From Dehalococcoidia bacterium (GTDB lineage: Bacteria; Chloroflexota; Dehalococcoidia; Lucifugimonadales; Lucifugimonadaceae): DNA of 64,000 nucleotides. The translations under genes were made by a program, and so were the position numbers. Location of the stretch: positions 2,121-66,120 of the forward strand of contig JAYGCG010000094.1 of NCBI GenBank assembly GCA_046583455.1, in the 5' to 3' direction. This document shows positions 48,359-64,000 of the stretch, one piece after another. How positions within the stretch are numbered: the first letter of the stretch is position 1; every line of letters begins with the position of its first letter. Under the pieces are notes generated by a model, which was not told the origin of the DNA, did not search any database, and was given only the letters and a program-made list of their open reading frames with translations.

Positions 48359-49357
48359 ATGGCCCTGCCCCTGGTAGCCATAATCGGCCCGAACGATTCG
48401 CGCACCCAGGCCGTTGTGGAGCGATATGAGATGCTCGCCGGCCAGCATGGGGCATCGGTCGAGGTTCGTTGGATCGGCAACTCTTCCGGCGATGCAGAGG
48501 TCCTTGAACAGGCCAAAGACGCCATCGCCGTAATCCCCGCGGGTCCCCGTGCGATCACGACCGAGCTGGCGCTCAAGCTGCCGAATCTGCGGCTCATTCA
48601 GACCACCTCGGCAGGGACCGACTACCTCGACAAGACTGCGCTGGGCGAAAGCGGCGTCCTTGTCGCCAACAACGGTGGCGGCAACTCCGTGGCGGTCGCA
48701 GAGCACGCCGTTGCCCTCATGATCTCCGTCTACCGCAAGATGAATCTTCAGCTCACGAGCACCCGGGCCGGCACGTGGATGGCAGGGGTGACGGGCGAAG
48801 AAGCGGAGTATCACAACCTCGTCGACAAGATGGTCGGCATAGTCGGCCTGGGTCGCATCGGATCCCGGGTCGCACGACGGTTGCGCGGCTGGGAGTGCGA
48901 GATCATCTACTCAGACGTTATTTCTATCCCCGAGGACGTTGAAAAAGAGACCAGGGCGCGTCGGGTTGAGTTGGACGAGCTGTTGAGCACGTCTGACCTG
49001 ATCACCCTCCATGTCCCGCTGGACCGTTCGACTCATCACATGATCAGTACGCGTGAATTTGGGCTGATGAAGTCGACCGCCATCCTGATCAACGCCTGCC
49101 GCGGCCCTGTGGTTGACGAAGCGGCGCTGACAACCGCCATTCAATCCGGACAGATATTCGGTGCCGGGCTGGACGTTCTGGAGCAGGAGCCAACCCCCGC
49201 CGACAACCCCCTGTTAAACATGGACAACGTCGTCGTGACCCCGCACCTGGCCAGCCTCTCGGTAGAGTCAGGGATCAGGTCTACCGACTTTGCGATGGCA
49301 AACGTCTCCCGACTGGCGCGGGGCGAAGAGCTCGAGTCGCTCGTCCACCCGGTCTGA
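48359..49357 (+). CDS. D-isomer-specific 2-hydroxyacid dehydrogenase, paralog B
   Basis: 'VGIVGLGRIGSRVARRL', 'NACRG', 'TPHLAS'. Confidence 0.8.
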   Translation: MALPLVAIIGPNDSRTQAVVERYEMLAGQHGASVEVRWIGNSSGDAEVLEQAKDAIAVIPAGPRAITTELALKLPNLRLIQTTSAGTDYLDKTALGESGVLVANNGGGNSVAVAEHAVALMISVYRKMNLQLTSTRAGTWMAGVTGEEAEYHNLVDKMVGIVGLGRIGSRVARRLRGWECEIIYSDVISIPEDVEKETRARRVELDELLSTSDLITLHVPLDRSTHHMISTREFGLMKSTAILINACRGPVVDEAALTTAIQSGQIFGAGLDVLEQEPTPADNPLLNMDNVVVTPHLASLSVESGIRSTDFAMANVSRLARGEELESLVHPV

Positions 49358-50052: not shown

Positions 50053-51182
50053 CCAGTTACGACGTTGCCATCATCGGTCTCGGGGCGATGGGCTCCGCCG
50101 CCGCCTATCACCTGGCGAAACGTGGTGTGAGCGTGATCGGTTTTGATCGTTTCACGCCGCCACACACCATGGGGTCATCTCACGGCGATACGCGCATCAT
50201 CCGGGAGGCGTATCACGAGTCACCTGCCTACGTGCCGATCGTTCAACGCGCATACGAACTCTGGGATGAGCTTGCGGAGGAAGCCGGTGAAACGCTTCTG
50301 CGGCAGACGGGCGGGGTGATGCTTGGCCCGCCGGAAGGTGAGACGGTGTCCGGGGCGATTCTTTCCGCGGAGCTATACGGACTGGTGCATGAAGTGCTGG
50401 ATGCGGACGAAATACGCAAGCGATGGTCGCAGTTCGACCCTCCGGATCACTTTGCCGCCGTTTATGAAGAGCGCTCCGGCGTTTTATTTCCGGAGAAGTG
50501 CATCTCGGCCCATCTTGAGGGCGCTTCGAAGGGCGGCGCCGACTTGCGATACGGGACGCAGGTATCCGACTGGGAGAAAGACGGAGATGGCGTGACCGTG
50601 CATACGAATAGCGGGGATGCCCGCGCCGCGAAGCTGTTGATCACCGCCGGGGCCTGGCTCCCGGGCCTGGTGTCCGAGTTGTCCTTACCTATTGAGGTAG
50701 CGCGACAGGTTTCGTTCTGGTTCGAACCTGCCGCTAATCCCGGCGTTTTCGACGCCGACCGGTGTCCGATTTACATCTGGGAATACGAGCTAGACCGTGC
50801 TTTTTACGGGTTCCCGAACCTCGGCGGTGGCATCAAGATTGCCCATCACCATGAGGGACGAGTTGTAGATCCGGACTCTCTGGACCGGGAAATGGTGACC
50901 GACGAGGACGAGCAGATGCTCAGGTCTCCTCTTTCACGCATGATGCCGGACGCAGTCGGTCGCGTGATCCGGTCAGGGGTGTGCATGTACGCCAACACGC
51001 CCGATCAGCACTACGCGATCGGTTTCCACCCGGAGAATCCGTCGGTCTTGATCGCGAGCCCGTGCTCTGGCCATGGCTTCAAGATGTCGTCCGCACTTGG
51101 AGAGTCGTTCGCAGAACTACTGCTGGACGGTGAGTCACGGTACGATCTGTCGCCGTTCGCACTGGATCGTTTGCTGACGTAG
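50049..51182 (+). CDS. solA: Monomeric sarcosine oxidase / N-methyltryptophan oxidase family flavoprotein
   Basis: 'YDVAIIGLGAMGSAAAYHLAKRG', 'GSSHGDTRIIREAY', 'CMYANTPD' (covalent-FAD Cys position), 'SGHGFK'. Start is ATG 50049, overlapping the HAD stop. The listed start 49872 sits inside the HAD gene. Confidence 0.85.
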   Translation: MTSYDVAIIGLGAMGSAAAYHLAKRGVSVIGFDRFTPPHTMGSSHGDTRIIREAYHESPAYVPIVQRAYELWDELAEEAGETLLRQTGGVMLGPPEGETVSGAILSAELYGLVHEVLDADEIRKRWSQFDPPDHFAAVYEERSGVLFPEKCISAHLEGASKGGADLRYGTQVSDWEKDGDGVTVHTNSGDARAAKLLITAGAWLPGLVSELSLPIEVARQVSFWFEPAANPGVFDADRCPIYIWEYELDRAFYGFPNLGGGIKIAHHHEGRVVDPDSLDREMVTDEDEQMLRSPLSRMMPDAVGRVIRSGVCMYANTPDQHYAIGFHPENPSVLIASPCSGHGFKMSSALGESFAELLLDGESRYDLSPFALDRLLT

Positions 51183-51587: not shown

Positions 51588-52526
51588 ATGTATCAAGACA
51601 CGATTTCCTTCAGTTATGGCGCTTTGCGCGCCAGCCATATACGTGAAGAGGCCAGCTTGACCCAGTTGCAGAACGCCGGAAGTAGCCCAGCCAACGGCTT
51701 GCCATCAGACACGTCTTCCGTCCGCATCATCGATCTGCCCCGTGTAGGCGTAGCCCAGGCAGAGGTGGATACAGTCGCCTCAGATGTCGATGCCCTCACC
51801 ACAAACATTACAAATGTTGTTGTGGCGTCTGACATGACCGTGAAGCGGACCCTACTTGGACTGTTCGCAAAGGGGCACGTTCTCCTTGAGGACCTCCCCG
51901 GGGTCGGGAAAACGCTGATATCGAAGACGATTGCACAGTCCATTAAGTGCGACTTCAAGCGGATCCAGTTCACGCCGGACCTGTTGCCGAGTGACATCAC
52001 TGGCACGTCAGTTTTCGACATGAAGGAAAGCTCGTTCGAGTTCCTGCCCGGACCGATCTTCGCAAACATCGTCCTCGCAGACGAGATCAATCGCACAGGC
52101 CCGAGGACTCAGGCCGCATTGCTTGAGGCGATGGCCGAGTTTCAGGTGACGGTGGAGGGTGAAAGCCGTGCGCTTCCATCTCCCTTCCTTGTGATCGCCA
52201 CCCAGAATATGGCGGAGAGCCACGGCGCTTTCCCGCTGCCCGAATCGCAATTAGACCGATTTCTTATCTCGATGGGCATGGGCATGCCGGGCCCGGAAGC
52301 CGAAGCCGAGATCCTGGCCAGATCTCAGAACGGAATACCTGCGGCAAAGGAAGTCTTGACCGGGGAACGCGTTGTCGAGATGCAGGAGATCGTCAGCGGA
52401 GTGGAAGTCTCCGCACCGGTACGTCAGTACATGGTCAACGTGATCCAGGCGACACGGATCGCAGACGGTGTGCAGTTCGGCGTCAGTCCCCGAGGGGGCG
52501 CGGCGTTGCAGCGAGCTCTCGCGTGA
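51588..52526 (+). CDS. MoxR-family AAA+ ATPase, apparently truncated at the C-terminus
   Basis: 'LLEDLPGVGKT' Walker A, 'IVLADEINRTGPRTQAALLEAM' Walker B. Ends at '..GVSPRGGAALQRALA*', which is where the lid domain normally continues for roughly 55-70 aa. N-terminal start uncertain. Confidence 0.7.
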   Translation: MYQDTISFSYGALRASHIREEASLTQLQNAGSSPANGLPSDTSSVRIIDLPRVGVAQAEVDTVASDVDALTTNITNVVVASDMTVKRTLLGLFAKGHVLLEDLPGVGKTLISKTIAQSIKCDFKRIQFTPDLLPSDITGTSVFDMKESSFEFLPGPIFANIVLADEINRTGPRTQAALLEAMAEFQVTVEGESRALPSPFLVIATQNMAESHGAFPLPESQLDRFLISMGMGMPGPEAEAEILARSQNGIPAAKEVLTGERVVEMQEIVSGVEVSAPVRQYMVNVIQATRIADGVQFGVSPRGGAALQRALA

Positions 52527-52669
52527 ACGAGATCAAACTGGCGTTCAAAAACGTCAAACTGGAAGAGGCGGCGGAAGGGGCCTGATTTCGGTCATATCGT
52601 CCTGACGCGTCCCAATATAAACCCCTACCAGCCCTGATCAGGTCCGAAAGACTCTGACCCCAAAATAAA

Positions 52670-52683
52670 AACCGCACGCGGTT
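52670..52683 (-). terminator. Rho-independent terminator of the paralog C dehydrogenase gene
   Basis: On the minus strand, AACCGCGTGCGGTT (5-bp stem) overlaps the TAA stop and is followed by TTTATTTTGGGG. Confidence 0.5.
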
Positions 52684-53665
52684 AGATGCCGGCGCGGGTC
52701 TTGCCAAGTACTTCCGGGTTGATCACGACATCCGGCATCTCTCCATTCAGTACCCGTACGACCTCGCGGGCCGTTCGTTCCTCAAGCTCTATGGTCGATG
52801 CCTGTGAGAAGAACGCCGTATGCGGTGTAATGATGACGTTTTCGAATGCGTAAAGAGGATGATCGTCCGGCGGGGCTGTCTCCTCCAGCACGTCCAATCC
52901 CGCTCCCCCGATCTCGTCCCTGCCCAACGCCTCCACGAGCGCCGACTCATCAATCAAAGGGCCACGGGCGGCGTTAATTAAGAAGGCGTCATTCTTCATC
53001 AATCGGAACTCGGCGGCGCCCATCATCCCCGTTGTTTCCGGGAGTAGCGGGGCATGGAGCGTTACGAAGTCGGAGGCCTCCAACATCGAATCCATCGAGG
53101 TCATTTGCACGCCTTCTGGAGCGTCTGATTGCCCAATAAATGGATCGTGCGCCAGGACCGTCATGCCGAAGACGCGTGCGCGTTCGGCGACAGCGCGACC
53201 GATCCGGCCCATCCCGGCGATGCCCATCGTCTTATCTCGCAGCCGGTGCATCGTATCTGTAAGTGACACGGACCCCCAGCCGGATGATTTGACCATTGAG
53301 CTGTGCTTGACGATCTTGCGGTTGAACGCAAGTACCATCGCCATCACATGATCGGCCACCTCGTCGATGCAGTAATCGGGGATGTTGGTCACAACGATCC
53401 CAAGCTCAGTGCAGGCGGCGATATCCAGGTTGTCCACCCCGATGCCATAGCGTGACGCCACCTTGCAGTTTGGCGCGTTCTGTAGCACCGATGCCGGAAC
53501 CTGAGCGAAGCAGAACATGATGGCGTCCACATCAGCGGCGAGCCTGGCCAGAGTCTCCACAGACGAGTCAGGCGCCACTATCGGCTCGATGCCCGCGGCC
53601 TTCAGGATCGCCGTCTCGGCGTCTATGTTCGGCCAAGTGTAGTCGGTAATCAGGACTTTGCTCAA
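52682..53665 (-). CDS. D-isomer-specific 2-hydroxyacid dehydrogenase, paralog C
   Basis: 'MGIAGMGRIGRAVAERA', 'NAARG', 'TPHTAF'. Confidence 0.8.
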   Translation of the reverse strand: MSKVLITDYTWPNIDAETAILKAAGIEPIVAPDSSVETLARLAADVDAIMFCFAQVPASVLQNAPNCKVASRYGIGVDNLDIAACTELGIVVTNIPDYCIDEVADHVMAMVLAFNRKIVKHSSMVKSSGWGSVSLTDTMHRLRDKTMGIAGMGRIGRAVAERARVFGMTVLAHDPFIGQSDAPEGVQMTSMDSMLEASDFVTLHAPLLPETTGMMGAAEFRLMKNDAFLINAARGPLIDESALVEALGRDEIGGAGLDVLEETAPPDDHPLYAFENVIITPHTAFFSQASTIELEERTAREVVRVLNGEMPDVVINPEVLGKTRAGI

Positions 53666-53784
53666 GTCACGTTCCTTTTAGAGCTACTGGTCGATAGCGA
53701 TGCCTGCGGCGCTACAGGGTAGCGCGAAAATTATCCCGAGGCTTGTCATACGGTCAGCCATGTTGTGCCGGTGCGGAACGGAGA

Positions 53785-54666
53785 TCAATCAGCGATGCTT
53801 ACCTCGGCCGGAATGATGCCCAGGTTTTCGCAGGTCTGAGCGACTACGGCGGCGCGGTTGAGCGTGTAGAAATGCAGCTCGTCCACGCCTTCCAGCATCA
53901 GCCGATGGGTGAACTCCGTTGCCACACTGACCGCCACGCTCAGACGGGCCTGCGTCCCGTTCCCGGCCCTGCCGAATCGTGAAACAAGCCAGTCCGGCAC
54001 GCTCGCTCCGCAGCGTTTGGCGAACCGGCTCGTGCTCACGATGTCCACGATGGGCATGACGCCCGGGACAATCGGTGCCGTGATACCGGCGGCACGGGCG
54101 CGGTCGATAAAACGAAAGTACATGTCGGGCTCAAAGAAAAATTGCGTAATTGCACGCGTGGCGCCGGCGTCTAACTTCCGCTTCAGATTGTCCAGATCCG
54201 CCTCAGCGCTGACAGCCTCTGGATGAGGCTCGGGGTAGGCGGCAACCGTGATCTCGAAATCGGCCACGCGTTTAAGCCCGGCAATCAGATCGGACGCGTA
54301 GTGATAGCCGTCGGGATGTGGCTCATACCGGTCCGTGCCCGCCGGTGGGTCGCCCCTCAGGGCCACGATGTGCCGAATCCCGGCATCCCAGTAGTCACGC
54401 GCCACCTCGTCAACCTCGTCGCGCGACGCGCCGACGCAGGTCAGATGTGCGGCGGGAGGAATGTCACTCTCCGCCAGCATTCTCCGGACAATTTGATGTG
54501 TACGCTCACGAGTGCTCCCGCCGGCTCCGTAAGTTACCGACGTGAAGCGAGGTCCGTACGGCTCAAGACGCTTAAAAGATCGCCAGAGAGTGCGTGCTGC
54601 GTGGGGCGTGCGTGGGGGAAAGAATTCGAACGACACCAACGGAAGCCTGCGGGTTGTAGAGGTCAA
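53785..54666 (-). CDS. metF: 5,10-methylenetetrahydrofolate reductase
   Basis: 'SFEFFPP', 'TYGAGGSTRERT', 'ALRGDPP', 'TQFFFE' MTHFR motifs. Confidence 0.9.
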   Translation of the reverse strand: MTSTTRRLPLVSFEFFPPRTPHAARTLWRSFKRLEPYGPRFTSVTYGAGGSTRERTHQIVRRMLAESDIPPAAHLTCVGASRDEVDEVARDYWDAGIRHIVALRGDPPAGTDRYEPHPDGYHYASDLIAGLKRVADFEITVAAYPEPHPEAVSAEADLDNLKRKLDAGATRAITQFFFEPDMYFRFIDRARAAGITAPIVPGVMPIVDIVSTSRFAKRCGASVPDWLVSRFGRAGNGTQARLSVAVSVATEFTHRLMLEGVDELHFYTLNRAAVVAQTCENLGIIPAEVSIAD

Positions 54667-55643
54667 CTGGCCGCCTCCACTGAATCGGGCTCCGACCTGG
54701 AATCTGACGTAGCTGATCCCTCGTGTGACGCCAGCCAGACGTTCACCGTCAAAGGATCGCCTTTCAGCGTTCTCGTCAACTCAGATCCCAACCCGGCGAC
54801 CTCGCACCATGCCGAGACCTCTTCGTCAGCAAGACCTAGTCTGTGGTGCGCGTGTTCCTCGATGAGGATGTTTTGCGTGTGAGGGGCGAAGTCGATCACC
54901 ACGAGGCGTCCGCCCGGGCGCAATACTCGGGACGCCTCTGCGATGGCGGAAGCAGGGTCCTCTGCGTAGTGCAACACCAGGTGGAACACGACGGCGTCCT
55001 GGGAGGCGTCGTCAAATGGCAGTTCGTACATGTCACCGTGACGGACCTGGCAATGCTCAAGGCCTGGTTTACCCAGATTCACGCGCGCAACGGCCAACAT
55101 TTCGTGAGACAGATCGATGCCGACACCATTACGGATGTCTGGGGCCATCACCTCAAGGATTCGTCCGGTGCCGGTTCCGATGTCCAAAAGATCTGAGACG
55201 TCACCGCCCCCGAGTAGATCGCGAACACACGCTTCCACTTCCGCCTCCGGGACATACATGGAACGTATCTGGTCCCAGCGAGGAGCGTTCTCACGGAAGT
55301 AGGACGCGGCCGCATCAGCGCGTGCTTCCTTGATCTCTTCCAATCTCTCCTGGTCACGCAGGTAAACAGGATCGTTTTCGGGAATCAGGTCTACGATGGC
55401 CTTACCCAGGAGCGGTCCATTGGGGCCGCTGGAAATCCTGTAAAACGCCCACTGACCCTCTCGGAATCGGCTCAAGAGTCCGGCCTCAACGAGCAACTTC
55501 AAATGACGTGATACACGCGGCTGGCTCTGTCGCAGGATCTGCGTCAGCTCGGTCACCGTGAGCTCGGCATGGGCGCACAGGGTCAACAGGCGGAGCCGTG
55601 TCGGCTCTCCCGCTGCCCTCAGTCCCGCCAGAAGCTGTTCCAT
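54663..55643 (-). CDS. ArsR-family wHTH regulator fused to a class I SAM-methyltransferase-like domain (SahR-like architecture)
   Basis: N-terminal 'EPTRLRLLTLC....LTVTELTQIL.QSQPRVSRHLKLL' ArsR HTH. C-terminal 'VSDLLDIGTGTGRILE' SAM-binding motif I, 'DAVVFHLVLHY', 'LRPGGRLVV'. 4-nt overlap with metF. Confidence 0.8.
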   Translation of the reverse strand: MEQLLAGLRAAGEPTRLRLLTLCAHAELTVTELTQILRQSQPRVSRHLKLLVEAGLLSRFREGQWAFYRISSGPNGPLLGKAIVDLIPENDPVYLRDQERLEEIKEARADAAASYFRENAPRWDQIRSMYVPEAEVEACVRDLLGGGDVSDLLDIGTGTGRILEVMAPDIRNGVGIDLSHEMLAVARVNLGKPGLEHCQVRHGDMYELPFDDASQDAVVFHLVLHYAEDPASAIAEASRVLRPGGRLVVIDFAPHTQNILIEEHAHHRLGLADEEVSAWCEVAGLGSELTRTLKGDPLTVNVWLASHEGSATSDSRSEPDSVEAAS

Positions 55644-55697
55644 GGGTCGTTCACTTATCCCCGGATTGCCGGAATTGGTGACGATTGATCAAGTACG

Positions 55698-55729
55698 TGC
55701 ATATAAACATTTCCTTATATGTTGGTCAA
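55698..55729 (-). promoter_or_regulatory. Promoter/operator P1 (upstream of the ArsR-MTase-metF unit)
   Basis: Minus strand reads TTGACC, 17 nt, TTATAT. The spacer and -10 carry the palindrome TGCATATAAA-CATTTC-CTTATATGTT (7/10 arm match). One of three near-identical sites. Confidence 0.65.
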
Positions 55730-55779
55730 GCTGAATCGAAAACACGTTTGCAACCGGTTCGTCTCGCAGGGAAACGGGA

Positions 55780-57411
55780 TCAGGCTGACGCCAGGTCTTG
55801 CTTCATGGGCTTGAACTGACAGCCCTCCACGAACAGGTCAAAGAAGTCAGGCATTGTCTCAAGCTCAACGTGCTCAATGTCGCGTGTGAGCAGTTCGATT
55901 TCCTTGCGCTTGACCCGGGACGTGAGCATGATTGTCGCGCCTTCCAGCGCGGCGTTCCCGACCTGCGAAACGCGATCCGTCGAGACGTTGGCGATGAAGC
56001 CAATGTCGCGGGCGTTGTCAACGTCGATGTAGTTGGCAAAACCACCGGCGAGGTACATGCGCGTCAATTTCTCCGGTGAAGTCCCGTACTCACGGAGGAC
56101 GATCCACTGACCGCAGTAGTTGGCGGCCTTCGCCTGTGCAAGCGCGCTCATGTCAGCGCGTGAGATCGTGATGCCACGTTCGGGCACAACGTCAAACTCC
56201 GACGCGCCGTCTTTCAGTACGCCGAGTTCGTTCATGGTTTCCGTTCTGACGAGCTCCGCCAGCAGGTCCACCAACCCCGAGCCGCAGATCCCTTCCGGCA
56301 CTGCGTCGCCGATCGTGTCGAACTCCACACCGCCGTTGACGATGCGGACGGACTCGATCGCGCCGTCGTAGCCGGGCATGCCAAATTTGACCTCGGCGCC
56401 CTCGAACGCCGGCCCGGCGGGACAGGACGCGGCAAGCATGCGGTAACGGTTTCCGACGATTACTTCTGTGTTGGTGCCGATGTCGACAAGTGCAACGACG
56501 TCTTCAGATTCATCCATGCCGATGGCGAGTATGTCTGCCGCTATGTCGCCGCCGATGTGGCTTCCGATGAGTGGAGCACCGTAAACGTTGGCGCCCGGGA
56601 ATATGCGCAGGTCCAAGTCGCGTGCCTTCACGTTCAACGCCGTCGTCTCACGCTTGCCCGCCCTGAACTCCTCTTCCACGAGTGACCGGTAAGGTTTCTC
56701 GCCAATCGACTGCACGTCAAGTCCGAAGAACAGCTCCCGCATCGTGGAGTTGCCCACAATGACGGCCTCGTATATGTGAGGGCGACGAATTCTCAGGTGC
56801 CGGACCATGTCCCCGATCTCGAAATTGATCGACGACATGATCACTTGACCAAGCTCACCCTGGTACTCGCCGCTGTCGTACGTGATGCGGCGCATCGTGT
56901 CGCTGCCGCCAAACCTTTGCGGGTTTTCGAACGACCCTGTATGGAGAATCTCGCCCGATTCCACGTCGACAAGATTCAGCACAACGGTCGTGGTGCCGAC
57001 GTCGATCGCCAGACCGTAGATGTGGCCGCGGTATCGGTCGATCACCTCGCCGTCGAACACCACGTCGTCTCCGACGCGTGTGGTCAACGGGTCTAACGTC
57101 ACATTGCGCGACACCGTACGGGTCATGATCCGTGGCTGCCGGCGCAGTACGGCGAACTCGATATCGGCGTCCGGGTCTTTGACCACCGCCTGACAGGCAA
57201 GTCGGTAGTTCTCGTTCAGCAGAAACTGCTCGGACTCGGTCGGATCGTTGAGCGCCTCGGCCCCGCGTTTCACCTCTACGATGCATTCGTGGCACTCGCC
57301 GGTCCGCCCGCACGAGGTAGGCACGCGTACGTTCAGTGCGTCTGCGTAGTCGAAGATGCTCTGATCGGCGACAAGTTCAAGAATCTGGTCGCCGTGATGT
57401 AGGGGAGACAT
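55780..57411 (-). CDS. Corrinoid reductive activator, RACo/RamA-like (N-terminal 2Fe-2S ferredoxin + ASKHA/DUF4445 ATPase)
   Basis: 'CGRTGECHECIV....LACQ' plant-type ferredoxin motif. ASKHA 'GLAIDVGTTTVV' and 'VDIGTNTE' phosphate motifs. 543 aa. Confidence 0.8.
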   Translation of the reverse strand: MSPLHHGDQILELVADQSIFDYADALNVRVPTSCGRTGECHECIVEVKRGAEALNDPTESEQFLLNENYRLACQAVVKDPDADIEFAVLRRQPRIMTRTVSRNVTLDPLTTRVGDDVVFDGEVIDRYRGHIYGLAIDVGTTTVVLNLVDVESGEILHTGSFENPQRFGGSDTMRRITYDSGEYQGELGQVIMSSINFEIGDMVRHLRIRRPHIYEAVIVGNSTMRELFFGLDVQSIGEKPYRSLVEEEFRAGKRETTALNVKARDLDLRIFPGANVYGAPLIGSHIGGDIAADILAIGMDESEDVVALVDIGTNTEVIVGNRYRMLAASCPAGPAFEGAEVKFGMPGYDGAIESVRIVNGGVEFDTIGDAVPEGICGSGLVDLLAELVRTETMNELGVLKDGASEFDVVPERGITISRADMSALAQAKAANYCGQWIVLREYGTSPEKLTRMYLAGGFANYIDVDNARDIGFIANVSTDRVSQVGNAALEGATIMLTSRVKRKEIELLTRDIEHVELETMPDFFDLFVEGCQFKPMKQDLASA

Positions 57412-57501
57412 TGGTTAGTCAGTTTCTCGCTGAGGTGTGTTGAGTAAACCGCTGTGGGCGTTCTTTGAATGCTTGGGATTTCAAGAGCCGGTGGAAGAGG
57501 C

Positions 57502-57768
57502 CTAGGTTTCCCACGCCGACCGGTAATCGATCTCATCACTGCCGGTGCAGATCGCCTTTTCGCCGACGACTTTGAAGAACTGATTTCGGCAAGGGAACTT
57601 CGCCGTGCACCGTGACTTTGCGTCCTTGTACGGGCAACGGGTCTGGCCGGGAGTGGCGGCGGTCTCAGAGATATCGGAGTAGATATCCATGAGCCGTGAC
57701 ATGCTCGTCCGCAATCGATCCGAGTCCACCGATTTCTTCGGAGGGAGATTGTCTTTTGATTCCGCCAT
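57502..57768 (-). CDS. Small Cys-rich protein, 88 aa, hypothetical
   Basis: Sits between the corrinoid protein and activator genes on the same strand. Four Cys in 'CPYKDAKSRCTAKFPCRNQFFKVVGEKAIC'. Confidence 0.45.
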   Translation of the reverse strand: MAESKDNLPPKKSVDSDRLRTSMSRLMDIYSDISETAATPGQTRCPYKDAKSRCTAKFPCRNQFFKVVGEKAICTGSDEIDYRSAWET

Positions 57769-57834
57769 GTTGACCTCCTCCCTGGATCAGGGTTGGCCAA
57801 TGTCTTGCCGTCGATTATCTATGTGGGAGCGCTA

Positions 57835-58581
57835 TTAGGCGCTTGCAGCCCTGACCATAGCGATCAACTCTTTAGCCTTTTCCACACACGTGATGGCGTT
57901 GTCCGCATATCCGTCTGCGCCCATATCGTCCGCAAATTCTTGCGTTACAGGAGCGCCGCCGGTCATGAACTTGTACTCGTCGCGTAGTCCCATGTCTTCA
58001 AATTCGATGATCGTGCGGCCCATGTTCGGCATCGTAGTCGTGAGCAGGGCGGACATCATCACAAGGTCTGCGCCGTTCTCTTCAGCGGCCTCCATGAACT
58101 CGTCTGGCTTCGTGTCTACGCCGAGATCGTGCACAACGAATCCAGCCCCCCGCATCATCATGATGCAGAGGTTCTTGCCGATGTCGTGAAGGTCGCCCTT
58201 TACGGTCCCGAAAACGGCGGTGCCGATCGGCTCCACACCTGACGCCGAAAGGATCGGGTCGATGTGCGCCATTCCGGCCTTCATAGCCCGTGCGGCGATG
58301 AGTACTTCAGGGACGAAGATGATGTTGTCTCGGAACTTGACGCCAACGACGGCCATCCCCGAGATCAGTCCTTCGTCGAGGACATCGTTGGCCTCACGGC
58401 CTTCGCCAAGCGCTCTTTGCGTAAGCTCGTCAACGGCGTGATGATCGCCGGTAATGAGGCTGTACGCCATCTCCTGCATGAGTGCGTCGCCCGCTACGAT
58501 CTGCTCGAGGATCATTTCACGCTCGTCTTCACGCGTGACGTACTCGAACTCTTTAGCGAGGCCTTCATGAACGATTGGCAA
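57835..58581 (-). CDS. Corrinoid (cobalamin-binding) methyl-carrier protein, cap + B12-binding domains
   Basis: 'GDLHDIGKN' DxHxxG motif, 'SALLTTT', 'GGAP'. Confidence 0.88.
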   Translation of the reverse strand: MPIVHEGLAKEFEYVTREDEREMILEQIVAGDALMQEMAYSLITGDHHAVDELTQRALGEGREANDVLDEGLISGMAVVGVKFRDNIIFVPEVLIAARAMKAGMAHIDPILSASGVEPIGTAVFGTVKGDLHDIGKNLCIMMMRGAGFVVHDLGVDTKPDEFMEAAEENGADLVMMSALLTTTMPNMGRTIIEFEDMGLRDEYKFMTGGAPVTQEFADDMGADGYADNAITCVEKAKELIAMVRAASA

Positions 58582-58650
58582 GTTTGAATCTCCGATTGAA
58601 CCAGGTTAGACGCCATGTACGTAATAAGGCGGCTTAGATCAAGCGATATA

Positions 58651-58682
58651 GATACATAAACATATCGTTATATATCTGTCAA
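58651..58682 (-). promoter_or_regulatory. Promoter/operator P2 (upstream of the corrinoid protein unit)
   Basis: Minus strand reads TTGACA, 17 nt, TTATGT. Palindrome GATACATAAA-CATATC-GTTATATATC (8/10 arm match). Confidence 0.65.
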
Positions 58683-58740
58683 TGCAGCGTTACCGCGCAT
58701 TAGACCGGGTACTGGCACCCGGTCTGCCGATAGTTAGGAG

Positions 58741-59775
58741 TTAGAGGCGCTCGGCGCTCCAGTCTTTGACCGCGTCCGGGATGGCCAGAAGGTTCTGGAG
58801 TTTCGTCTGGAGAGGGATGGCGCACTCCGGAGCGATCATCTGCACCCCCGCCTCAAGGCAGGCGTACACCTCTTTACGGACCTCATCAGGTCCGCGTGAG
58901 TAGAGGGTTTCAGGATTGTTGATGTTGCCCACAAGGGCGATCCCGCCATCGACTGCGTCCATCGCCGCCTGCGGGTCGTTTCTGGAGTCGAAGTGGAAGG
59001 CCGCCATGCCTGTTTGTGCGATGTACGGCATGCGGTCCAGCGTCTGGCCGCAGATGTGGAGGATGAGTGGTGCGTTGATTCGCTCCGCCATCTCCGTGTG
59101 GATATCTTGCAAGAAGCGTTTGTAGTACTCGCCGGACACAAGGTCTCCGGTGGCGTGGTCGGGGACGCAGATGGCGTCCGCACCGGCGGCGATCTGGGCA
59201 TCTGCGAACAGGTACGTCGCCACCTTGAGCTTGTCCAGGATTCGCATCGTCATGTCGGGGTCGTCGATGGTCATCAGGAGGAAGGTCTCGACGCCGAACA
59301 CGTGGTAGGCGAGCGTCCACGGTCCCATGGACTTGCCGATGATTGCGACCTCGTCACCGAACTGCTTTTTCAATATCTCGATAGCGCCCGTGATGCTCTT
59401 CATGTCACGGTGCTCAAGGAAGTCGGCCGGGATCTTGACGTCGGCTTCACCCTTCCATATCGGGTTGGCCATTCGGACGGTCGGCCAGTTGTCCTTCTGC
59501 TCCCACTGCATCTCGCAGCCGAGCGCAGAGGACTCCTGGATGATGGTGAAGTAGGGCTGTATGGAGTCGAACCCGAGTTCCGTGTAACCGGTCGCCGCCA
59601 GCTGTGCGTTCAACTCTGGATCCCGGCAGGCGTCCGGAAACGGCGCGTCCACCATATCCATCAGCTCGACCGTTGCGACGTTGGTCGGGTTGGATACAGG
59701 GGTTCGGTCCACCGGCAGACCGGCAAGCGCGTTCATCACGCGTTCCTTGGACGTCATGGTGTCTGCATATGGCAT
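58741..59775 (-). CDS. Uroporphyrinogen-decarboxylase-family methyltransferase (MtaA/CmuA/O-demethylase MT-like)
   Basis: 344 aa, 'TSKERVMNALAGLPVDRTPV' URO-D-like N-terminus, 'ICVPDHATGDLVS', 'LHICG' motif. Confidence 0.7.
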   Translation of the reverse strand: MPYADTMTSKERVMNALAGLPVDRTPVSNPTNVATVELMDMVDAPFPDACRDPELNAQLAATGYTELGFDSIQPYFTIIQESSALGCEMQWEQKDNWPTVRMANPIWKGEADVKIPADFLEHRDMKSITGAIEILKKQFGDEVAIIGKSMGPWTLAYHVFGVETFLLMTIDDPDMTMRILDKLKVATYLFADAQIAAGADAICVPDHATGDLVSGEYYKRFLQDIHTEMAERINAPLILHICGQTLDRMPYIAQTGMAAFHFDSRNDPQAAMDAVDGGIALVGNINNPETLYSRGPDEVRKEVYACLEAGVQMIAPECAIPLQTKLQNLLAIPDAVKDWSAERL

Positions 59776-59812
59776 TGGAGTGGCCTCGATCCCCTAGTTT
59801 AAGTTCCGGGGT

Positions 59813-60475
59813 TTAAGTGCTGGCGAACCCAAGCGTGGATGTCGTCATCTGGCCGCGTAGAGCGTCGGCCTCCATCGCGTCTTCGACGGCGCTGATGTTT
59901 CGGGAGTAGGGCAGTATCAGACGAGCCAGACCGTCGTGGCGCTGGCCGCAACTGAACGTGATGGTCGAGTCGTCCAGCTTGTCCATCTCTCCATAACGCA
60001 CGAACCCGGCGATTATGGCTCGAAGGCGTAGCGCTGGGTTTTTCGCCTCGCCGGTCGTCGAGATACGGTACACGTAGCGGTTACCGTCCTGTTCGCCCGT
60101 CATATCGATCGTCAGATTGCTCTTGGAGTCTTTGATCTGGAGCTTTTCCGGCCGATCGCGTTCTGCCGTGCGTTCGATGGCAGCGGTGGTCAAAAACTTG
60201 AGCGGACGGGTGTGGACGTGTCCGCAAGGGAAGCGCAGCCGATTCCAGGCATCTGCGATCTCCATGCCGCCGAGCTTGACCAGCCGGTCCACGATATCTC
60301 GTATGCGGTCATCCACGCCAGGTCGTCGGCTGAAGGTCCACACGGTGGAAATGCCTTCGCGTTCGTACAGCCCGACGCTGATGTCGTGGAAGTTTGGATC
60401 CATCGGCACCAGCTCCACGCAGTCGCCGTAGCGGGTGACTACTTCGCGTGCGCTGAGTAGTTCTAGCGTTGTCAT
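59813..60475 (-). CDS. Hypothetical protein, 220 aa, internal two-fold repeat with FxCGxxH motifs
   Basis: 'RDIVDRLVKLGGMEIAD...RFPCGHVH' (about residues 59-88) parallels 'RAIIAGFVRYGEMDKLD...TFSCGQRH' (about residues 152-180). Embedded in the methyltransferase operon. Confidence 0.55.
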   Translation of the reverse strand: MTTLELLSAREVVTRYGDCVELVPMDPNFHDISVGLYEREGISTVWTFSRRPGVDDRIRDIVDRLVKLGGMEIADAWNRLRFPCGHVHTRPLKFLTTAAIERTAERDRPEKLQIKDSKSNLTIDMTGEQDGNRYVYRISTTGEAKNPALRLRAIIAGFVRYGEMDKLDDSTITFSCGQRHDGLARLILPYSRNISAVEDAMEADALRGQMTTSTLGFAST

Positions 60476-60510
60476 CTGGAGATGGAACCTCTGATCGTGT
60501 TACCCCGTGT

Positions 60511-61404
60511 TTAGCCTTTAACGGCTTCTACAAGGGATTTTATGTGGTCTGGCCCGGTACCGCAGCACCCGCCAAGTATGTTGATACCAAGTCCATGCAG
60601 CGTCTTGAAGTGTTCAGCCATGAACTCAGGCGTCTCAGGATAAACGATCTCCATATTGATGATCGCAGGAATACCGGCGTTTGAGTGCACAAGCATGAAG
60701 CCGTCATCCACGGCGCGCATGAGCTGTGCGATTTCAATCATTCGCTCGATGCCGTTGCCGCAGTTGGTGCCGACTACGTCTGCCCCTGCCTCTCGCAGCT
60801 TTTTTACGCCGACTTCGGGTGTGATGCCCATCATCGTGAAAAATCCGCGGGGTCCAGGGTCGTACACCATCGTGGACATCACGACGAGGTCTGTGTTGTC
60901 CTTGGCGGCCTTCACGGCCAGGGTGGCTTCTTCGATAGCGGTCATGGTCTCTATGACGACGCCGTCAGCGCCGCCCTCGGCGAGCGCTGTGATCTGCTCT
61001 ACAAAGGCGTCGTACATCTCCGTCTCGGACACCGGCCCAAGCGGCTCAAGGAACTCTCCCGTCGGGCCAACAGAACCAATCACGAAGGCGCCGGGAGGGG
61101 CGACCGAGCGTGCGTGTTCCGCGGCAAGACGGTTGAATTCAGACACCTTGTCTTCATGACCGTACTTTTTGGTCATGAACTTCGTCCCACCGAACGAGTT
61201 GGTAAGGACCATCTCTGAACCGGCGTCGAAGTAACGCTTTGCCATCTCTTTGATGGTGTCCGGGTGACTGACGTTGAACTCTTCAGGGCAACCGCCCGGC
61301 TCCAGTCCATGTTCCTGGAGATACGAGCCTGTGGCGCCGTCAGAGATGATCGTGTCGCCCCGTTCGAGGCGTTCGAGAAGTGTTGGGGCAGATGTTGAAG
61401 TCAT
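60511..61404 (-). CDS. Homocysteine S-methyltransferase domain protein (MetH Hcy-binding module-like)
   Basis: 'ISDGATGSYL', 'TNSFG', 'GTNCGNG', 'GGCCGTGPDHI' (zinc Cys triad). Confidence 0.85.
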   Translation of the reverse strand: MTSTSAPTLLERLERGDTIISDGATGSYLQEHGLEPGGCPEEFNVSHPDTIKEMAKRYFDAGSEMVLTNSFGGTKFMTKKYGHEDKVSEFNRLAAEHARSVAPPGAFVIGSVGPTGEFLEPLGPVSETEMYDAFVEQITALAEGGADGVVIETMTAIEEATLAVKAAKDNTDLVVMSTMVYDPGPRGFFTMMGITPEVGVKKLREAGADVVGTNCGNGIERMIEIAQLMRAVDDGFMLVHSNAGIPAIINMEIVYPETPEFMAEHFKTLHGLGINILGGCCGTGPDHIKSLVEAVKG

Positions 61405-61510
61405 TGGGTTCCAATTTGCCGCTGGCGTCGCCCGAACAATTTCGGGTACATGATCAGCGCGTCTTTAGCTACAAGAAGTTTGGTCGAGTGGGCGCCTGAT
61501 TCAAGAGTGC

Positions 61511-61852
61511 TTAGCTCTTGATCCAGCTATCTATCGCCCCCGGCGATGGGTCTCGTTCGCCGGCGTTCGCAAGGTCCCGAATCCGGGCCACGAAATCGTC
61601 AGGAAAACCGTCGTTGAATCGCTGAGCTATAGCCGCGGCGGCTTCCTTTGGCGGTGCATCCACTTCGCCGTAATCCTTGAGTTCCCATGAGTCCAGGTAG
61701 TCGTCGGTACCGGCGCTGCCGTCAAACATGGCGATCGCGTCGGCGGCTTCCTGAAATCGGGCGTCGAGTGGATGTGAAATAGTTCCCCCCTCGTCGCTTG
61801 CCTGAACCGTGACGGGGATTTCTTTCCAGTACATGAGGCGTACGAGCGCCAA
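61511..61852 (-). CDS. Small acidic protein, 'virulence factor' (PF13769-like) family
   Basis: 'MYWKEIPVTVQA....RFQEAADAIAM..G.AGTDDYLDSWE' resembles the 'YWRDIPAQV...GTDDYL..W' signature recalled for this family. Confidence 0.55.
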   Translation of the reverse strand: MALVRLMYWKEIPVTVQASDEGGTISHPLDARFQEAADAIAMFDGSAGTDDYLDSWELKDYGEVDAPPKEAAAAIAQRFNDGFPDDFVARIRDLANAGERDPSPGAIDSWIKS

Positions 61853-61886
61853 TGGAGTTCCTCCAACCGGGTGAGGGTCTAAATGA

Positions 61887-62927
61887 TTAATCCAGGCGTC
61901 CGTCGCGGAACGCTTTAATGTAGTTCATGCAGTAGTCGTCGTTGCCTTTAAGCATGTCCATCGCGAGCTCTACAGGCTCGGAGTCGAGGTCCAGATCCAG
62001 CACCTTCTGGATAGAGGTCGGGATCGGGTCAATAATCCCGCTGTCCAGCCCGCTCTCGATCGCCAGGTGCAGGAAAACGTCATTGACGAGCCTGCGTTTC
62101 GGCAGCCCGAACGACACGTTACTGACGCCGCCCGTGATGTGGACTTCGGGACCGTACTGCTCCCTGATAGTCGAGACGGCGTCCAGGTAGTCGTTCCCGT
62201 ACTGAGAAGCGACGCCGATCGGAAAGGCGAGGCAATCGATATACACGTCGCCGAGCGGTATGCCGGCATCCTGGATGTGCACCATGAGTTGGTCGATGTT
62301 CTCCACCCGCTCCTCGGCGTTGTCCGGCATTCCGGACTCTCCCGCGGCCGTGACGATCACGCGCCCATTGTTTTCCGTCACAAGTTTGATCGTGTCGAGG
62401 CGTTCCAGCGCGACCGAGTTGATCATCGGCCTGCCGGCAGCGCTGGTGTAGGCAGCCAGACCGGTCTTGATGATCTCCGGGTTTGACGAGTCGATACTTG
62501 ACGGGATGGTGGAAACCGCCTCAACAGTTCTGACCAGCCACTCCATCGACTCGTTCTGGATGTCGATATAGGGGCTGACCTCGTCGACGTTCAGATCCAG
62601 GAACGAGGCACCGGCCTTCGTCTGCCGCCGCACCTCTCGATGGACGTATGCGGTACCGATGGCCTGTTCTTCGGCATCGCCGTTTACGCCCTTCCAGACG
62701 GCGATCATGAAGTGTTTGACCTGGTTCAGTCCGTAGGGCTGCTGCTTTTTGAAATGCTCCGGGATGGAGAGAAACAGGTCCTTCCCGTTTTCGTCCTTGA
62801 ACGGCACGCCCTCGGTCCCGTCATCAAGCTTTCGGATACGTCGTCCGTTGAGCAGGACGATACGCGTCGTGTGAATGTTTTCGCCGATCGTTACAAAGTC
62901 GTCAGCGGATTTCAGATGGCGAGGCAC
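61887..62927 (-). CDS. Pterin-binding methyltransferase (methyl-THF:corrinoid methyltransferase, MetH pterin module / AcsE-like)
   Basis: 'IGENIHTTR', 'FLDLNVDE', 'GGVSNVSFGLPKRRLVNDVFLHLAIESGLDSGIIDP'. GTG start with GGAGAG 5 nt upstream. Confidence 0.85.
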   Translation of the reverse strand: MPRHLKSADDFVTIGENIHTTRIVLLNGRRIRKLDDGTEGVPFKDENGKDLFLSIPEHFKKQQPYGLNQVKHFMIAVWKGVNGDAEEQAIGTAYVHREVRRQTKAGASFLDLNVDEVSPYIDIQNESMEWLVRTVEAVSTIPSSIDSSNPEIIKTGLAAYTSAAGRPMINSVALERLDTIKLVTENNGRVIVTAAGESGMPDNAEERVENIDQLMVHIQDAGIPLGDVYIDCLAFPIGVASQYGNDYLDAVSTIREQYGPEVHITGGVSNVSFGLPKRRLVNDVFLHLAIESGLDSGIIDPIPTSIQKVLDLDLDSEPVELAMDMLKGNDDYCMNYIKAFRDGRLD

Positions 62928-62973
62928 AATAACTCTCCGGGATTGAAACGACCTCTGGAGGCCTTGATGTAAA

Positions 62974-63005
62974 GATATATAAACATTTCTTTATATATCA
63001 GTCAA
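62974..63005 (-). promoter_or_regulatory. Promoter/operator P3 (upstream of the pterin-MT operon; divergent from the 63161 ORF)
   Basis: Minus strand reads TTGACT, 17 nt, TTATAT. Perfect 10-bp inverted repeat GATATATAAA-CATTTC-TTTATATATC at 62974-62999. Confidence 0.7.
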
Positions 63006-63160
63006 TCGGAGTGTCTGACAGGTTTTGTGACGGTGACTGTGCATTTATTACTGCTTGCCGACTATCTCGGTAGCGCCGTCGTACAGGTCGCGCATAGAGG
63101 TACCATGCGCCCCGTCAGAGCACGTTAGCACCGGAGTTGTACATGCCAAAATTCACGCCC

Positions 63161-64000
63161 ATTGACCTCACTTCCTCATACAACCACCGTCGGACTGACG
63201 GATCGCCGTGGGATGAAGGAAGCGCGACCGCGGTTGCCGGATTACCGGGCGGCAACAACACCTTCTGGGGCATTCCATTTTCCGGAAAAGATGCATCGGA
63301 ACCATCGATCATAGTTGCGGGGGCGAGTGGGTCGACCAGCAAGGTGGAGATTCCGATCAACGCACCAGATAACACCGGCATTTCCGGTGCTGGCGCTCAG
63401 TACGTAGTTTTCCAACATGTGTGTGACGCTCGGGCGCTCGACGACGACGGGAACGTGCGGCAACCGTATCCGCTTCAGGCAGGACGCCCGCCTGTTGCGC
63501 TCAATCCCGGCGAACTCCTTGCCGAATACACGCTGGTATACGCAGATGGATCGGAGCACACCGTCCCGGTGCGCCGTCAGTTTGAGATCAACAGCCCGCG
63601 TACACGAGGCCAGAGCACATACGCGGCCAAGGACCATCTTGAGCCGGTAGCGCTGGACTTCCGTGGCCCGTCGCCCAAAAACCTGTGGGGGCGGATGCAA
63701 CTCAACGTCAACGTCGGATCGCTGGACTCCCTGACGAACGGCGAAGGCACATGGCTCTTGTTCGCGCTCCCAAACCCGCACCCGGATCGTCAGATATCGG
63801 GAATACGCGTGACGCCCACGGGCAGGGCATCGATCGGTATCGGGGCGATCACACTTTTCCACGGGAACAACCATCCGCTCCGCCACAGCAAGCTTGAGAG
63901 CGTGGCCGTGGAGCTGCCTGGTGGAGAAGGTTCCGATCCAGCATCGCTGGAGGTCGATATCGACCTCGGGACCGTTGCGCGTTCGTACGCCGTGCCTGCT
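63161..64000 (+). CDS. Hypothetical protein, 3' end outside window (not in the supplied ORF track)
   Basis: The frame is open from 63128 to base 64000 (291 codons, no stop). It reads '..GGNNTFWGIPFSGKDASEPSIIVAG..LAEYTLVYADGSEHTVPVRRQFEINSP..TWLLFALPNPHPDRQISGIRVTPTG..'. Start unclear (TTG 63161, GTG 63344 or GTG 63419). Confidence 0.5.
   Translation, partial: MDLTSSYNHRRTDGSPWDEGSATAVAGLPGGNNTFWGIPFSGKDASEPSIIVAGASGSTSKVEIPINAPDNTGISGAGAQYVVFQHVCDARALDDDGNVRQPYPLQAGRPPVALNPGELLAEYTLVYADGSEHTVPVRRQFEINSPRTRGQSTYAAKDHLEPVALDFRGPSPKNLWGRMQLNVNVGSLDSLTNGEGTWLLFALPNPHPDRQISGIRVTPTGRASIGIGAITLFHGNNHPLRHSKLESVAVELPGGEGSDPASLEVDIDLGTVARSYAVPA

Follow-up and report, generated by a model that had tools for sequence, protein, structure and literature searches.

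The stretch of DNA under study, 64,000 nucleotides of contig JAYGCG010000094.1 from a Dehalococcoidia bacterium (assembly GCA_046583455.1; "the window" throughout, to whose positions all coordinates refer), carries ten genes for what we read as a cobalamin-dependent methyl-transfer system arranged around a free-standing corrinoid protein. A sequence-only reading had described these genes as a MetH-like methionine synthase dispersed over separate polypeptides and accompanied by a RACo/RamA-type activator, metF, and a dedicated regulator. All ten open reading frames (ORFs) lie on the minus strand where that reading had placed them, and the Pfam and NCBIfam profile scans that we ran on all ten proteins, a form of assignment that it had recommended, recovered the domains it had named in the order it had given. 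From the first gene of the cluster to the last, these are:

61887-62927, minus strand: pterin-binding methyltransferase, an MtgD/MeTr-like TIM barrel (PF00809, E 1.7e-23; NF005719, 3.4e-60)
61511-61852, minus strand: PF13769 "Virulence_fact" protein of 113 aa, accessory (PF13769, 2.8e-11)
60511-61404, minus strand: Hcy S-methyltransferase module (HcyMT), MtgE/Bmt-like and predicted to be zinc dependent (S-methyl_trans PF02574, 2.3e-59)
59813-60475, minus strand: 220-aa protein ("unk220"), without a Pfam or NCBIfam match
58741-59775, minus strand: MtaA-type methyltransferase of the URO-D superfamily (hereafter URO-D), predicted to use zinc and a corrinoid (PF01208, 8e-69)
57835-58581, minus strand: corrinoid (B12) carrier protein, MtgC-like (B12-binding_2 PF02607 and B12-binding PF02310; best NCBIfam match, MtgC)
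57502-57768, minus strand: 88-aa Cys4 protein ("cys88"), with four cysteines and without a family match
55780-57411, minus strand: RACo/RamA-type ATP-dependent reductive activase, hereafter RACo (Fer2 PF00111, RACo_middle PF17651, RACo_C_ter PF14574)
54663-55643, minus strand: SahR-like regulator, an ArsR/SmtB helix-turn-helix (HTH) joined to a class I S-adenosylmethionine (SAM) methyltransferase domain (PF01022, PF08241, NF033788)
53785-54666, minus strand: MetF, NAD(P)H methylenetetrahydrofolate reductase (MTHFR PF02219, 2.5e-93; TIGR00676, 332.5 bits against a cut-off of 293.7)

The window comes from a marine, SAR202-like Dehalococcoidia genome. Six independent metagenome contigs carry an identical cluster, seven further species genomes of Dehalococcoidia/Chloroflexota (L010, L011, and L013 to L017, where L-numbers denote related loci) preserve the order of all ten genes with proteins that are 74 to 97% identical, and the sub-order HcyMT, 220-aa protein, URO-D, B12 protein, 88-aa protein, RACo is seen again across dozens of species in several phyla. 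For these reasons, the gene arrangement cannot be put down to chance. The 220-aa family, for which we found 713 homologues, is present in 243 species genomes; the best 80 genome loci belong to Dehalococcoidia, Acidobacteriota, SAR324, and Entotheonella/Tectimicrobiota. A divergent subfamily (~30% identity) extends this range to metagenome-assembled genomes (MAGs) of Alphaproteobacteria/Rhodospirillaceae, Poribacteria, Gemmatimonadota, and Latescibacteria, and a further locus, L095, appears to be gammaproteobacterial, judged from its neighboring genes.

By running tblastn over 58 species loci with long flanks and scoring each gene as present if it fell within 10 kb, we were able to separate what is constant in this arrangement from what is not. 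HcyMT and URO-D occur together with no pterin methyltransferase in 36 of the 58 loci, HcyMT, pterin methyltransferase, and URO-D occur together in 11 (the clade of the window included), pterin methyltransferase and URO-D occur with no HcyMT in 6, and in the remaining 5 URO-D is not found within the scored distance. Overall, HcyMT is present in 47 of these loci, the pterin methyltransferase in 17, and the PF13769 gene in 41, while URO-D accompanies the B12 protein and RACo in 53 and does so again in all four of the divergent lineages sampled. Among the divergent loci, L090 and L098 have the order 220-aa protein, URO-D, B12 protein, RACo, pterin methyltransferase, and L095 has 220-aa protein, URO-D, B12 protein, small protein, RACo, HcyMT, PF13769; the pterin-only cluster of Acidobacteriota runs on into MetV-like and MTHFR genes. 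The recurring core is therefore the 220-aa protein, URO-D, the B12 protein, cys88, and RACo, and the Hcy and pterin methyltransferases are its variable partners. Components of this kind had been called "extra"; in every lineage that we examined, the 220-aa protein and URO-D occur together with the B12 protein and RACo and belong to the conserved core. Because the two methyltransferases vary, "split MetH" describes only part of this machine.

The Hcy, pterin, and cobalamin modules are indeed encoded by separate ORFs, as had been proposed, but their alignments do not support the view that they are pieces of MetH. The B12 protein is ~32% identical to MetH and 48% identical to MtgC, and its best match in the PDB is the Moorella corrinoid protein 1Y80 (E 1e-55), with which the stretch "GDLHDIGKN" aligns, including "GDLHDIG" as the DxHxxG motif. 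The best PDB matches of the pterin protein are 2YCK, an AcsE-type MeTr, and 4O0Q, which we take to be methyltransferase II of a Desulfitobacterium O-demethylase; both rank ahead of the folate modules of MetH. HcyMT is best matched by Thermotoga maritima MetH (1Q7M, E 2e-50), and its "GTNCG" and "GGCCG" line up with the corresponding 1Q7M motifs, which presumably hold the zinc cysteines. The best PDB match of RACo is the RACo of Carboxydothermus (3ZYY/4C1N, E 5e-68). Against the full-length MetH model TIGR02082, the individual modules score 120 to 156 bits, compared with a cut-off of 1011. Because the B12 protein is nearer to MtgC and the pterin protein is nearest to AcsE/MeTr and 4O0Q, the modules, as judged by these comparisons, are not MetH fragments, with HcyMT alone being closest to a MetH, that of Thermotoga. 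PF02965, the S-adenosylmethionine (AdoMet) reactivation domain of MetH, has no Pfam match in any of the ten cluster proteins, and the three domains of the RACo/RamA-type activase are present, which bears out the earlier proposal that such an activator sits in its place. Of the window's ORFs that encode 280 aa or more, none is a canonical metH or metE.

A multi-part methionine synthase of this kind has a genetic precedent. In Phaeobacter inhibens, a three-part B12-dependent methionine synthase was deduced from fitness data; it consists of PF02574, PF00809, and B12-binding proteins together with a RamA-like ferredoxin/DUF4445 protein and a DUF1638 protein, and the equivalent genes are needed for methionine prototrophy (PMC5764234). 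A 2025 study of Ruegeria pomeroyi gave the same set of proteins the names MtgC (B12), MtgD (pterin, bidirectional), and MtgE (Hcy); in that organism, mtgC and mtgD mutants are methionine auxotrophs that are also unable to demethylate glycine betaine, a substrate that enters by way of the MttB-family protein MtgB (PMC12478193). The sequence-only reading had mentioned the roseobacter case; it was right on this point, and the precedent has since been extended by the Ruegeria work. There is thus nothing new in a MetH that is split and served by a RamA-type activator, the genetics in Phaeobacter (2018) and Ruegeria (2025) having come first. MtgCDE is reported from Alpha-, Gamma-, and Deltaproteobacteria, and the text of that report contains no mention of Chloroflexi, SAR202, URO-D, MtaA, or PF13769 (PMC12478193).

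The corresponding locus of Sinorhizobium meliloti provides a direct comparison. Its order is bmt, an MttB-family gene, a cobalamin-binding protein, DUF1638, a "virulence factor," an MTHFR C-terminal-domain protein, MTHFR, a methyl-tetrahydrofolate (methyl-THF):cobalamin methyltransferase, and an ASKHA protein. Five of the window proteins have counterparts there: HcyMT is 38% identical to Bmt/MtgE (E 2e-56), the B12 protein 48% identical to MtgC (E 1.5e-64), the pterin protein 31% identical to MtgD (E 1.6e-28), the PF13769 protein 42% identical to the "virulence factor" (E 1.6e-11), and RACo 32% identical to the ASKHA protein (E 3.6e-63). On this evidence, we consider the pterin, Hcy, corrinoid, and RACo proteins to be homologues of MtgC/D/E and RamA. 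The two systems share separate PF02574, PF00809, and PF02607 plus PF02310 proteins, the absence of PF02965, a ferredoxin plus DUF4445/RACo activase, and a nearby MTHFR and PF13769 gene, the last of which likewise accompanies MTHFR and MtgD in S. meliloti. They differ in that the S. meliloti locus has no counterpart of the 220-aa protein, URO-D, or the 88-aa protein, while MtgB and DUF1638 are lacking here: S. meliloti MtgB has no tblastn match in the window and PF06253 was not found in the cluster, and DUF1638 (PF07796) has neither a Pfam match among the cluster proteins nor, with the S. meliloti protein as query, a tblastn match in the window. Where the known systems have MtgB and DUF1638, the window cluster has an MtaA-type URO-D, a putative Cys2His2 protein of 220 aa, and a Cys4 activase module, all of its parts stand in one cluster under the predicted control of a SahR-like regulator, and it is carried by Chloroflexota and further uncultured phyla that are marine or sponge associated. 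Compared with canonical MetH (Escherichia coli, Thermotoga, human), the predicted chemistry of methyl-THF to Co(I) to homocysteine, the Hcy motifs, and DxHxxG are held in common, but there the modules form a single polypeptide with AdoMet-dependent reactivation and here they are separate ORFs with predicted ATP-dependent reactivation, and the B12 and pterin modules are nearer to free-standing corrinoid-protein systems.

Of all the cluster proteins, URO-D is the best conserved, with 65 to 81% identity across phyla (median, 76%), and it is still 65 to 69% identical where the 220-aa protein falls to ~30%. It exceeds the cut-offs of TIGR01463 (MtaA/CmuA; 250.7 against 235.4) and NF004889 (269 against 244) and falls below those of the MtaA/MtbA equivalogs NF040654 (249.9 against 400) and NF041608 (197.6 against 600). 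Its best PDB match is Methanosarcina mazei MtaA (4AY7, E 2e-51), with whose "HICG" and "GCG" its own "HICG" and "ECA" align, and the residues H240-x-C242...C318 are invariant in 81 homologues. The family scores, the 4AY7 match, and these invariant residues together lead us to regard URO-D as a probable MtaA/MtsA/MtpA-like zinc methyltransferase, the H-x-C...C residues being taken as a zinc site for a thiol-type group.

The 220-aa protein falls outside all Pfam and NCBIfam families, even when Pfam is searched at E=10. Within a set of 1.84 billion proteins, its own family accounts for 245 representative clusters, and in that same set of representatives no informative domain fusion was found, its members standing alone at ~210 to 230 aa. 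An AlphaFold2 (AF2) model of good quality (predicted local distance difference test [pLDDT], 85; predicted template modeling score [pTM], 0.80) consists of two tandem alpha/beta repeats followed by a conserved but disordered C-terminal tail, and a Foldseek search with this model against the PDB and BFVD yielded no match (best TM, <0.3). Each repeat contains one Cys-x3-His pair (Cys84-x3-His88 and Cys176-x3-His180), and both pairs are invariant in the two subfamilies, which suggests a candidate Cys2His2 metal site. We rejected the notion that the protein is a hidden DUF1638, given the empty Pfam search and an hhalign probability of 0.2%. The gene lies directly upstream of that for URO-D in the window. 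As a separate observation, the 1,326-aa protein P0266 matches positions 169 to 204 of the 220-aa profile, a region that includes the second Cys-x3-His, nine times.

Cys88 carries the invariant motif RCPYKD-x4-C-x5-C-x13-C...DYRxAW (C-x8-C-x5-C-x13-C). Its own AF2 model is poor, with a pLDDT of 62 that is too low for a structure search, but the divergent loci are informative: the RACo proteins of L090 and L098 are 650 to 660 aa long, cys88 is homologous to their N-terminal residues 13 to 79 (L090, E 3e-14) and 7 to 74 (L098, E 2e-11), and the remainder of each is 52 to 53% identical to the RACo of the window. Because it is fused to the RACo N terminus in these two loci, cys88 is a detachable N-terminal module of the reductive activase.

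The regulator was expected to be an ArsR-methyltransferase protein dedicated to the cluster, and this expectation held up well. It contains "LLDIGTGTG" in a fold of the type that binds SAM or S-adenosylhomocysteine (SAH), the stop codon of its gene and the metF start overlap by 4 nt, and a 20-bp imperfect palindrome, ATATAA(A/G)GAAATGTTTATAT, first seen as common to the regions upstream of the pterin and regulator genes, precedes three gene groups. A search of the whole window returned exactly three copies, compared with 0.00 expected from 100 shuffles:

62977-62996, minus strand: palindrome copy 1, operator-like, 20 bp, ATATAAAGAAATGTTTATAT, ~50 nt upstream of the pterin-methyltransferase start codon
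58654-58673, minus strand: palindrome copy 2, ATATAACGATATGTTTATGT, 73 nt upstream of the corrinoid-protein gene
55701-55720, minus strand: palindrome copy 3, ATATAAGGAAATGTTTATAT, 58 nt upstream of the regulator gene

Copy 1 is kept at the same position in L008 to L018, copy 2 is kept 81 to 93 nt before the B12 gene in L008 to L019, and copy 3 is kept before the regulator gene in L010 to L017. SahR is an SAH-responsive ArsR-family repressor with a core regulon of metF, metH, ahcY, and metK that binds 20-bp palindromes (PMC4239095). The regulator of the window has the same fusion of an ArsR HTH to a SAM/SAH-binding methyltransferase-like domain, and its ~20-bp palindromes likewise stand before its own gene and before methyl-cycle genes, although the consensus is ATATAA-N8-TTATAT here and ATC-N10-GAT as quoted for SahR (PMC4239095). 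We infer that one SAH-sensing regulator governs three transcription units: pterin methyltransferase to URO-D, B12 protein to RACo, and sahR-metF. Because of the shared palindrome and the SahR-like regulator, the whole cluster, URO-D and the 220-aa gene included, would belong to the methyl cycle. Rfam found no B12, SAM, or SAH riboswitch in positions 52000 to 64000 at E values up to 0.1, and scans for sigma-70 promoters and terminators did no better than shuffles.

From the domain identities, the metal and B12 motifs, the homology to MtgC/D/E and RamA, the synteny, the operator repeats, and the cys88-RACo fusion, all of which are observed directly, we infer the catalytic steps, the ligand of the regulator, the direction and substrate of URO-D, and the role of the 220-aa protein as follows. 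The cluster would encode a corrinoid-protein hub of the MtgCDE/RamA type with three ports, in which the URO-D and 220-aa pair most likely serves the methyl-donor side, a reading to which we assign a probability of roughly 60%. MetF would produce methyl-THF, the pterin-binding protein would load the methyl group onto the Co(I) of the free-standing B12 protein, and the zinc HcyMT would move it from there to homocysteine, yielding methionine. Whenever the cobalt became oxidized to Co(II), the RACo-type activase and cys88 would re-reduce it at the expense of ATP, standing in for the AdoMet/flavodoxin domain of MetH, and a SahR-like repressor with SAH as its ligand would act on the three units through one palindromic operator. 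These MtgCDE-type reactions are the supported part of the scheme, by homology to genetically validated systems. At the third port, the MtaA-type zinc enzyme and the putative Cys2His2 protein of 220 aa would dock on the same B12 carrier and transfer a methyl group from a small environmental compound to homocysteine or, where the pterin methyltransferase is present, to THF. Candidate donors are a methylated sulfur compound (methylmercaptopropionate [MMPA], dimethyl sulfide [DMS], methanethiol, or dimethylsulfoniopropionate [DMSP]) or a methyl halide.

The donor direction is argued from completeness and from position. Clusters with HcyMT alone (36 of 58 loci, and L095) are complete only if URO-D supplies the methyl group, the same is true of those with only the pterin methyltransferase and MetVF (6 of 58 loci, L027, L090, and L098), and URO-D takes the place that MtgB occupies in the Sinorhizobium locus. 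MtaA-family enzymes are able to use thioethers as methyl donors, as MtpA does (10.1101/548461). The zinc motif of URO-D would favor a thioether donor such as MMPA, DMS, or methanethiol, as in MtsA and MtpA; by analogy with CmuA, the donor may instead be a methyl halide.

A number of points weigh against this reading. The methylation of Co(I) by thioethers is thermodynamically unfavorable (10.1101/548461), and by our own reasoning a transfer from thioether to THF, which pterin-only clusters would need, runs uphill and therefore favors either a higher-energy donor, such as a halide or a sulfonium compound, or a URO-D that works in reverse; a transfer from thioether to homocysteine would be roughly isoenergetic and feasible. 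The pterin methyltransferase may be encoded elsewhere in genomes whose clusters have HcyMT alone, as is roseobacter mtgD (PMC12478193), and the argument for the donor side is for this reason one of parsimony rather than proof. DUF1638, which is required in Phaeobacter (PMC5764234), was not found in the cluster. The palindrome was recovered from the close clade L007 to L019 alone and not from distant loci, every genome with the 220-aa protein is an uncultured MAG, and a canonical metH or metE may lie elsewhere in the genome of the window.

The same core could be read with URO-D on the acceptor side, as a hub fed by methyl-THF from which URO-D and the 220-aa protein methylate a second thiol-type nucleophile, making the cluster a two-product methylase; the nucleophile might be sulfide (to give methanethiol), 3-mercaptopropionate, a low-molecular-weight thiol, or selenide. 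MtaA and MtbA, the closest characterized relatives, move a methyl group from methyl-Co(III) to a zinc-bound thiol, which is the thermodynamically favorable direction (10.1101/548461), the pterin-only clusters with MetVF (L027, L090, and L098) would then read as a complete route from methyl-THF to a thiol, and Kountz and Balskus tie bacterial MtaA-like clusters to methyl-sulfur and methyl-selenide metabolism (PMC10418091). Such a role is a serious rival, which we nevertheless hold to be unlikely: the 36 HcyMT-only loci and L095 would each contain two acceptor enzymes and no donor within 10 kb, no conserved nearby gene makes or uses a thiol product of this sort, and control of the SahR type fits the regeneration of methionine better than the synthesis of a second thioether.

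A mainly catabolic X-CH3:THF demethylase, comparable to MtgBCD, cmu, and the O-demethylases, in which MetF would run oxidatively and HcyMT would be a minor branch, agrees with the architecture of methyltransferase I, corrinoid protein, methyltransferase II, and activase and with the closeness of the pterin protein to AcsE-type MeTr and 4O0Q. Ruegeria MtgC and MtgD run in the demethylating direction, with a MetF paralogue adjoining mtgD (PMC12478193), and the window includes a formate-dehydrogenase-like pair and an N-methyl amino-acid oxidase, both described below. Such a demethylase seems to us quite improbable even so, given that HcyMT is found at 47 of the 58 loci and the pterin methyltransferase at only 17, that a regulator of the SAH-sensing type is translationally coupled to a MetF of the E. 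coli type, that no MttB-family or O-demethylase-type methyltransferase I was found, and that the clustered neighboring ORFs of 81 loci include no conserved transporter or one-carbon (C1) genes (folD, purU). A further proposal, a plain three-part MetH beside which URO-D, the 220-aa protein, and the 88-aa protein are unrelated neighbors, can point to roseobacters, where MtgCDE and RamA alone suffice for methionine (PMC5764234, PMC12478193). It is, however, scarcely credible when the 220-aa protein, URO-D, B12 protein, and RACo genes stay adjacent across many phyla even without HcyMT or the pterin methyltransferase, when URO-D is better conserved than any other member of the set and cys88 is fused to RACo in some lineages, and when the genes for URO-D, the 220-aa protein, and cys88 all lie downstream of the shared operator in the window.

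A corrinoid hub with URO-D and the 220-aa protein at a donor port has partial likenesses among better-known systems. With the methanogen enzymes MtaA, MtbA, MtsA, and MtpA it shares family-level scores, H-x-C...C, a cognate corrinoid protein, and an ATP-dependent activase, but the partners are MtaB, MtmB, and MttB there and Hcy and pterin enzymes here. The host bacteria are presumably aerobic and would not be expected to make coenzyme M, and we know of no obligatory 220-aa partner in methanogens. With the cmu pathway and the O-demethylases it shares a four-part logic of donor methyltransferase, corrinoid protein, pterin methyltransferase to THF, and activase, as well as a nearby MTHFR, the O-demethylases also having a RACo-type activase; the exit port to homocysteine is a feature of the window cluster. 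CmuA of the chloromethane pathway is a methyltransferase domain fused to a corrinoid-binding domain, and here the two are on separate genes. The methyltransferase I enzymes of O-demethylases are only ~17% identical to MtaA-like proteins (PMC10418091). The nearest published bacterial MtaA-like clusters are the type 1 mlp clusters of Kountz and Balskus, for which a role in methyl-sulfur or methyl-selenium metabolism has been proposed (PMC10418091). These likewise combine an MtaA-like methyltransferase with a corrinoid protein and a RACo-type activase, but they contain two or three Mlp paralogues, lack HcyMT and the pterin methyltransferase, and occur in obligate anaerobes only, whereas the window cluster has one URO-D with a 220-aa partner, Hcy and/or pterin methyltransferases in its relatives, and marine or sponge-associated hosts.

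Several further observations concern the surroundings of the cluster and of its relatives. In many Dehalococcoidia, including several chromosome-level MAGs, the operon is split by insertions (L025, 10700 to 18800, with equivalents in L020 to L081) that separate URO-D from the 220-aa gene on one side and from the B12 gene on the other; we considered the inserted genes as clues to the substrate and rejected them, as they are of the toxin-antitoxin or restriction-modification type (DUF433/PIN-like pairs, a DNA methylase, a Uma2 nuclease), with some other orphan genes among them. A D-2-hydroxyacid dehydrogenase paralogue, which follows the cluster in 28 related loci, is the sole recurring neighbor among the ORFs of the 81 loci and may be a candidate serine/glyoxylate link to C1 supply. 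The window has three such paralogues (46575-47573, 48359-49357, and 52682-53665), the last of which is directly downstream of metF. Between this downstream dehydrogenase and the oxidase gene lies a MoxR-type AAA ATPase (AAA_3/AAA_5; 51588-52526, plus strand) with no evident link to the cluster. The oxidase, of the N-methyl-L-tryptophan oxidase/monomeric sarcosine oxidase family (50061-51182, plus strand; NF008425, 460 bits against a cut-off of 257), is ~2.6 kb from the cluster. The formate-dehydrogenase-like pair, NAD-linked by its appearance, consists of a Nuo51-like FMN/4Fe-4S protein (16544-18262, plus strand) and a 2Fe-2S plus molybdopterin oxidoreductase (18283-21120, plus strand) and is a possible sink for C1 units. 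On the other side, an 859-aa protein without a Pfam match is encoded on the plus strand, divergently from the cluster, from ~63100 past the end of the window (L001, 4043 to 6622) and is kept in close relatives. Among the plasmids of PLSDB, tblastn with URO-D gave only weak HemE-like matches, the presence of a cmuA plasmid in PLSDB being unconfirmed, and tblastn with the 220-aa protein gave no useful match. One PLSDB/GenBank entry, CP090106.1 (L087; 3.72 Mb, labeled "plasmid pSymB"), is chromosome sized and probably mislabeled; it carries bmt, MtgB/C/D, DUF1638, and RamA-like genes.

Methionine synthase is one of the main reasons that marine microbes need vitamin B12. Its multi-part MtgCDE form, recognized only recently as widespread in the ocean, now extends to Chloroflexota of the SAR202 type, and its B12 carrier and activase are tied, in uncultured marine and sponge-associated bacteria of at least eight phyla, to a URO-D/220-aa module. 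The sequence-only reading had suggested that the extra components and this organization in a Chloroflexota-like genome were uncharacterized; the multi-part methionine synthase itself had already been characterized genetically, but its pairing with URO-D, the 220-aa protein, and cys88 is undescribed. We found no earlier description of a URO-D/HcyMT cluster in SAR202, SAR324, Entotheonella, or sponges in the literature searched. A hub joined to an MtaA-type methyltransferase, an orphan-fold protein with a putative Cys2His2 site, and a Cys4 module under a SahR-like operator is an undescribed variant.

More tentatively, and as a possibility that we would rate as somewhat doubtful, the 220-aa protein and URO-D may together be a donor-specific methyltransferase that lets its hosts (SAR202, SAR324, Acidobacteriota, Entotheonella, Poribacteria, Gemmatimonadota, and Rhodospirillaceae) make methionine from an environmental methyl compound through the shared B12 protein without methyl-THF, and so a candidate for the DMS or methylated-thiol methyltransferase of aerobes or for a cmuA-independent methyl-halide methyltransferase. 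A cobalamin-dependent DMS methyltransferase has been postulated for aerobic DMS degraders but still awaited identification in 2019 (PMC6548844). The cys88-RACo fusion and the 220-aa protein with its paired Cys-x3-His motifs offer handles on how Co(II) is re-reduced in presumably aerobic hosts. If these bacteria do harvest methyl groups from methyl-sulfur compounds or methyl halides in this way, the cluster would provide a candidate gene for that DMS enzyme (PMC6548844), the inference of B12 demand and methionine prototrophy from such genomes would change, and the marine sulfur or halogen cycle would gain an added route into methionine and the methyl cycle.

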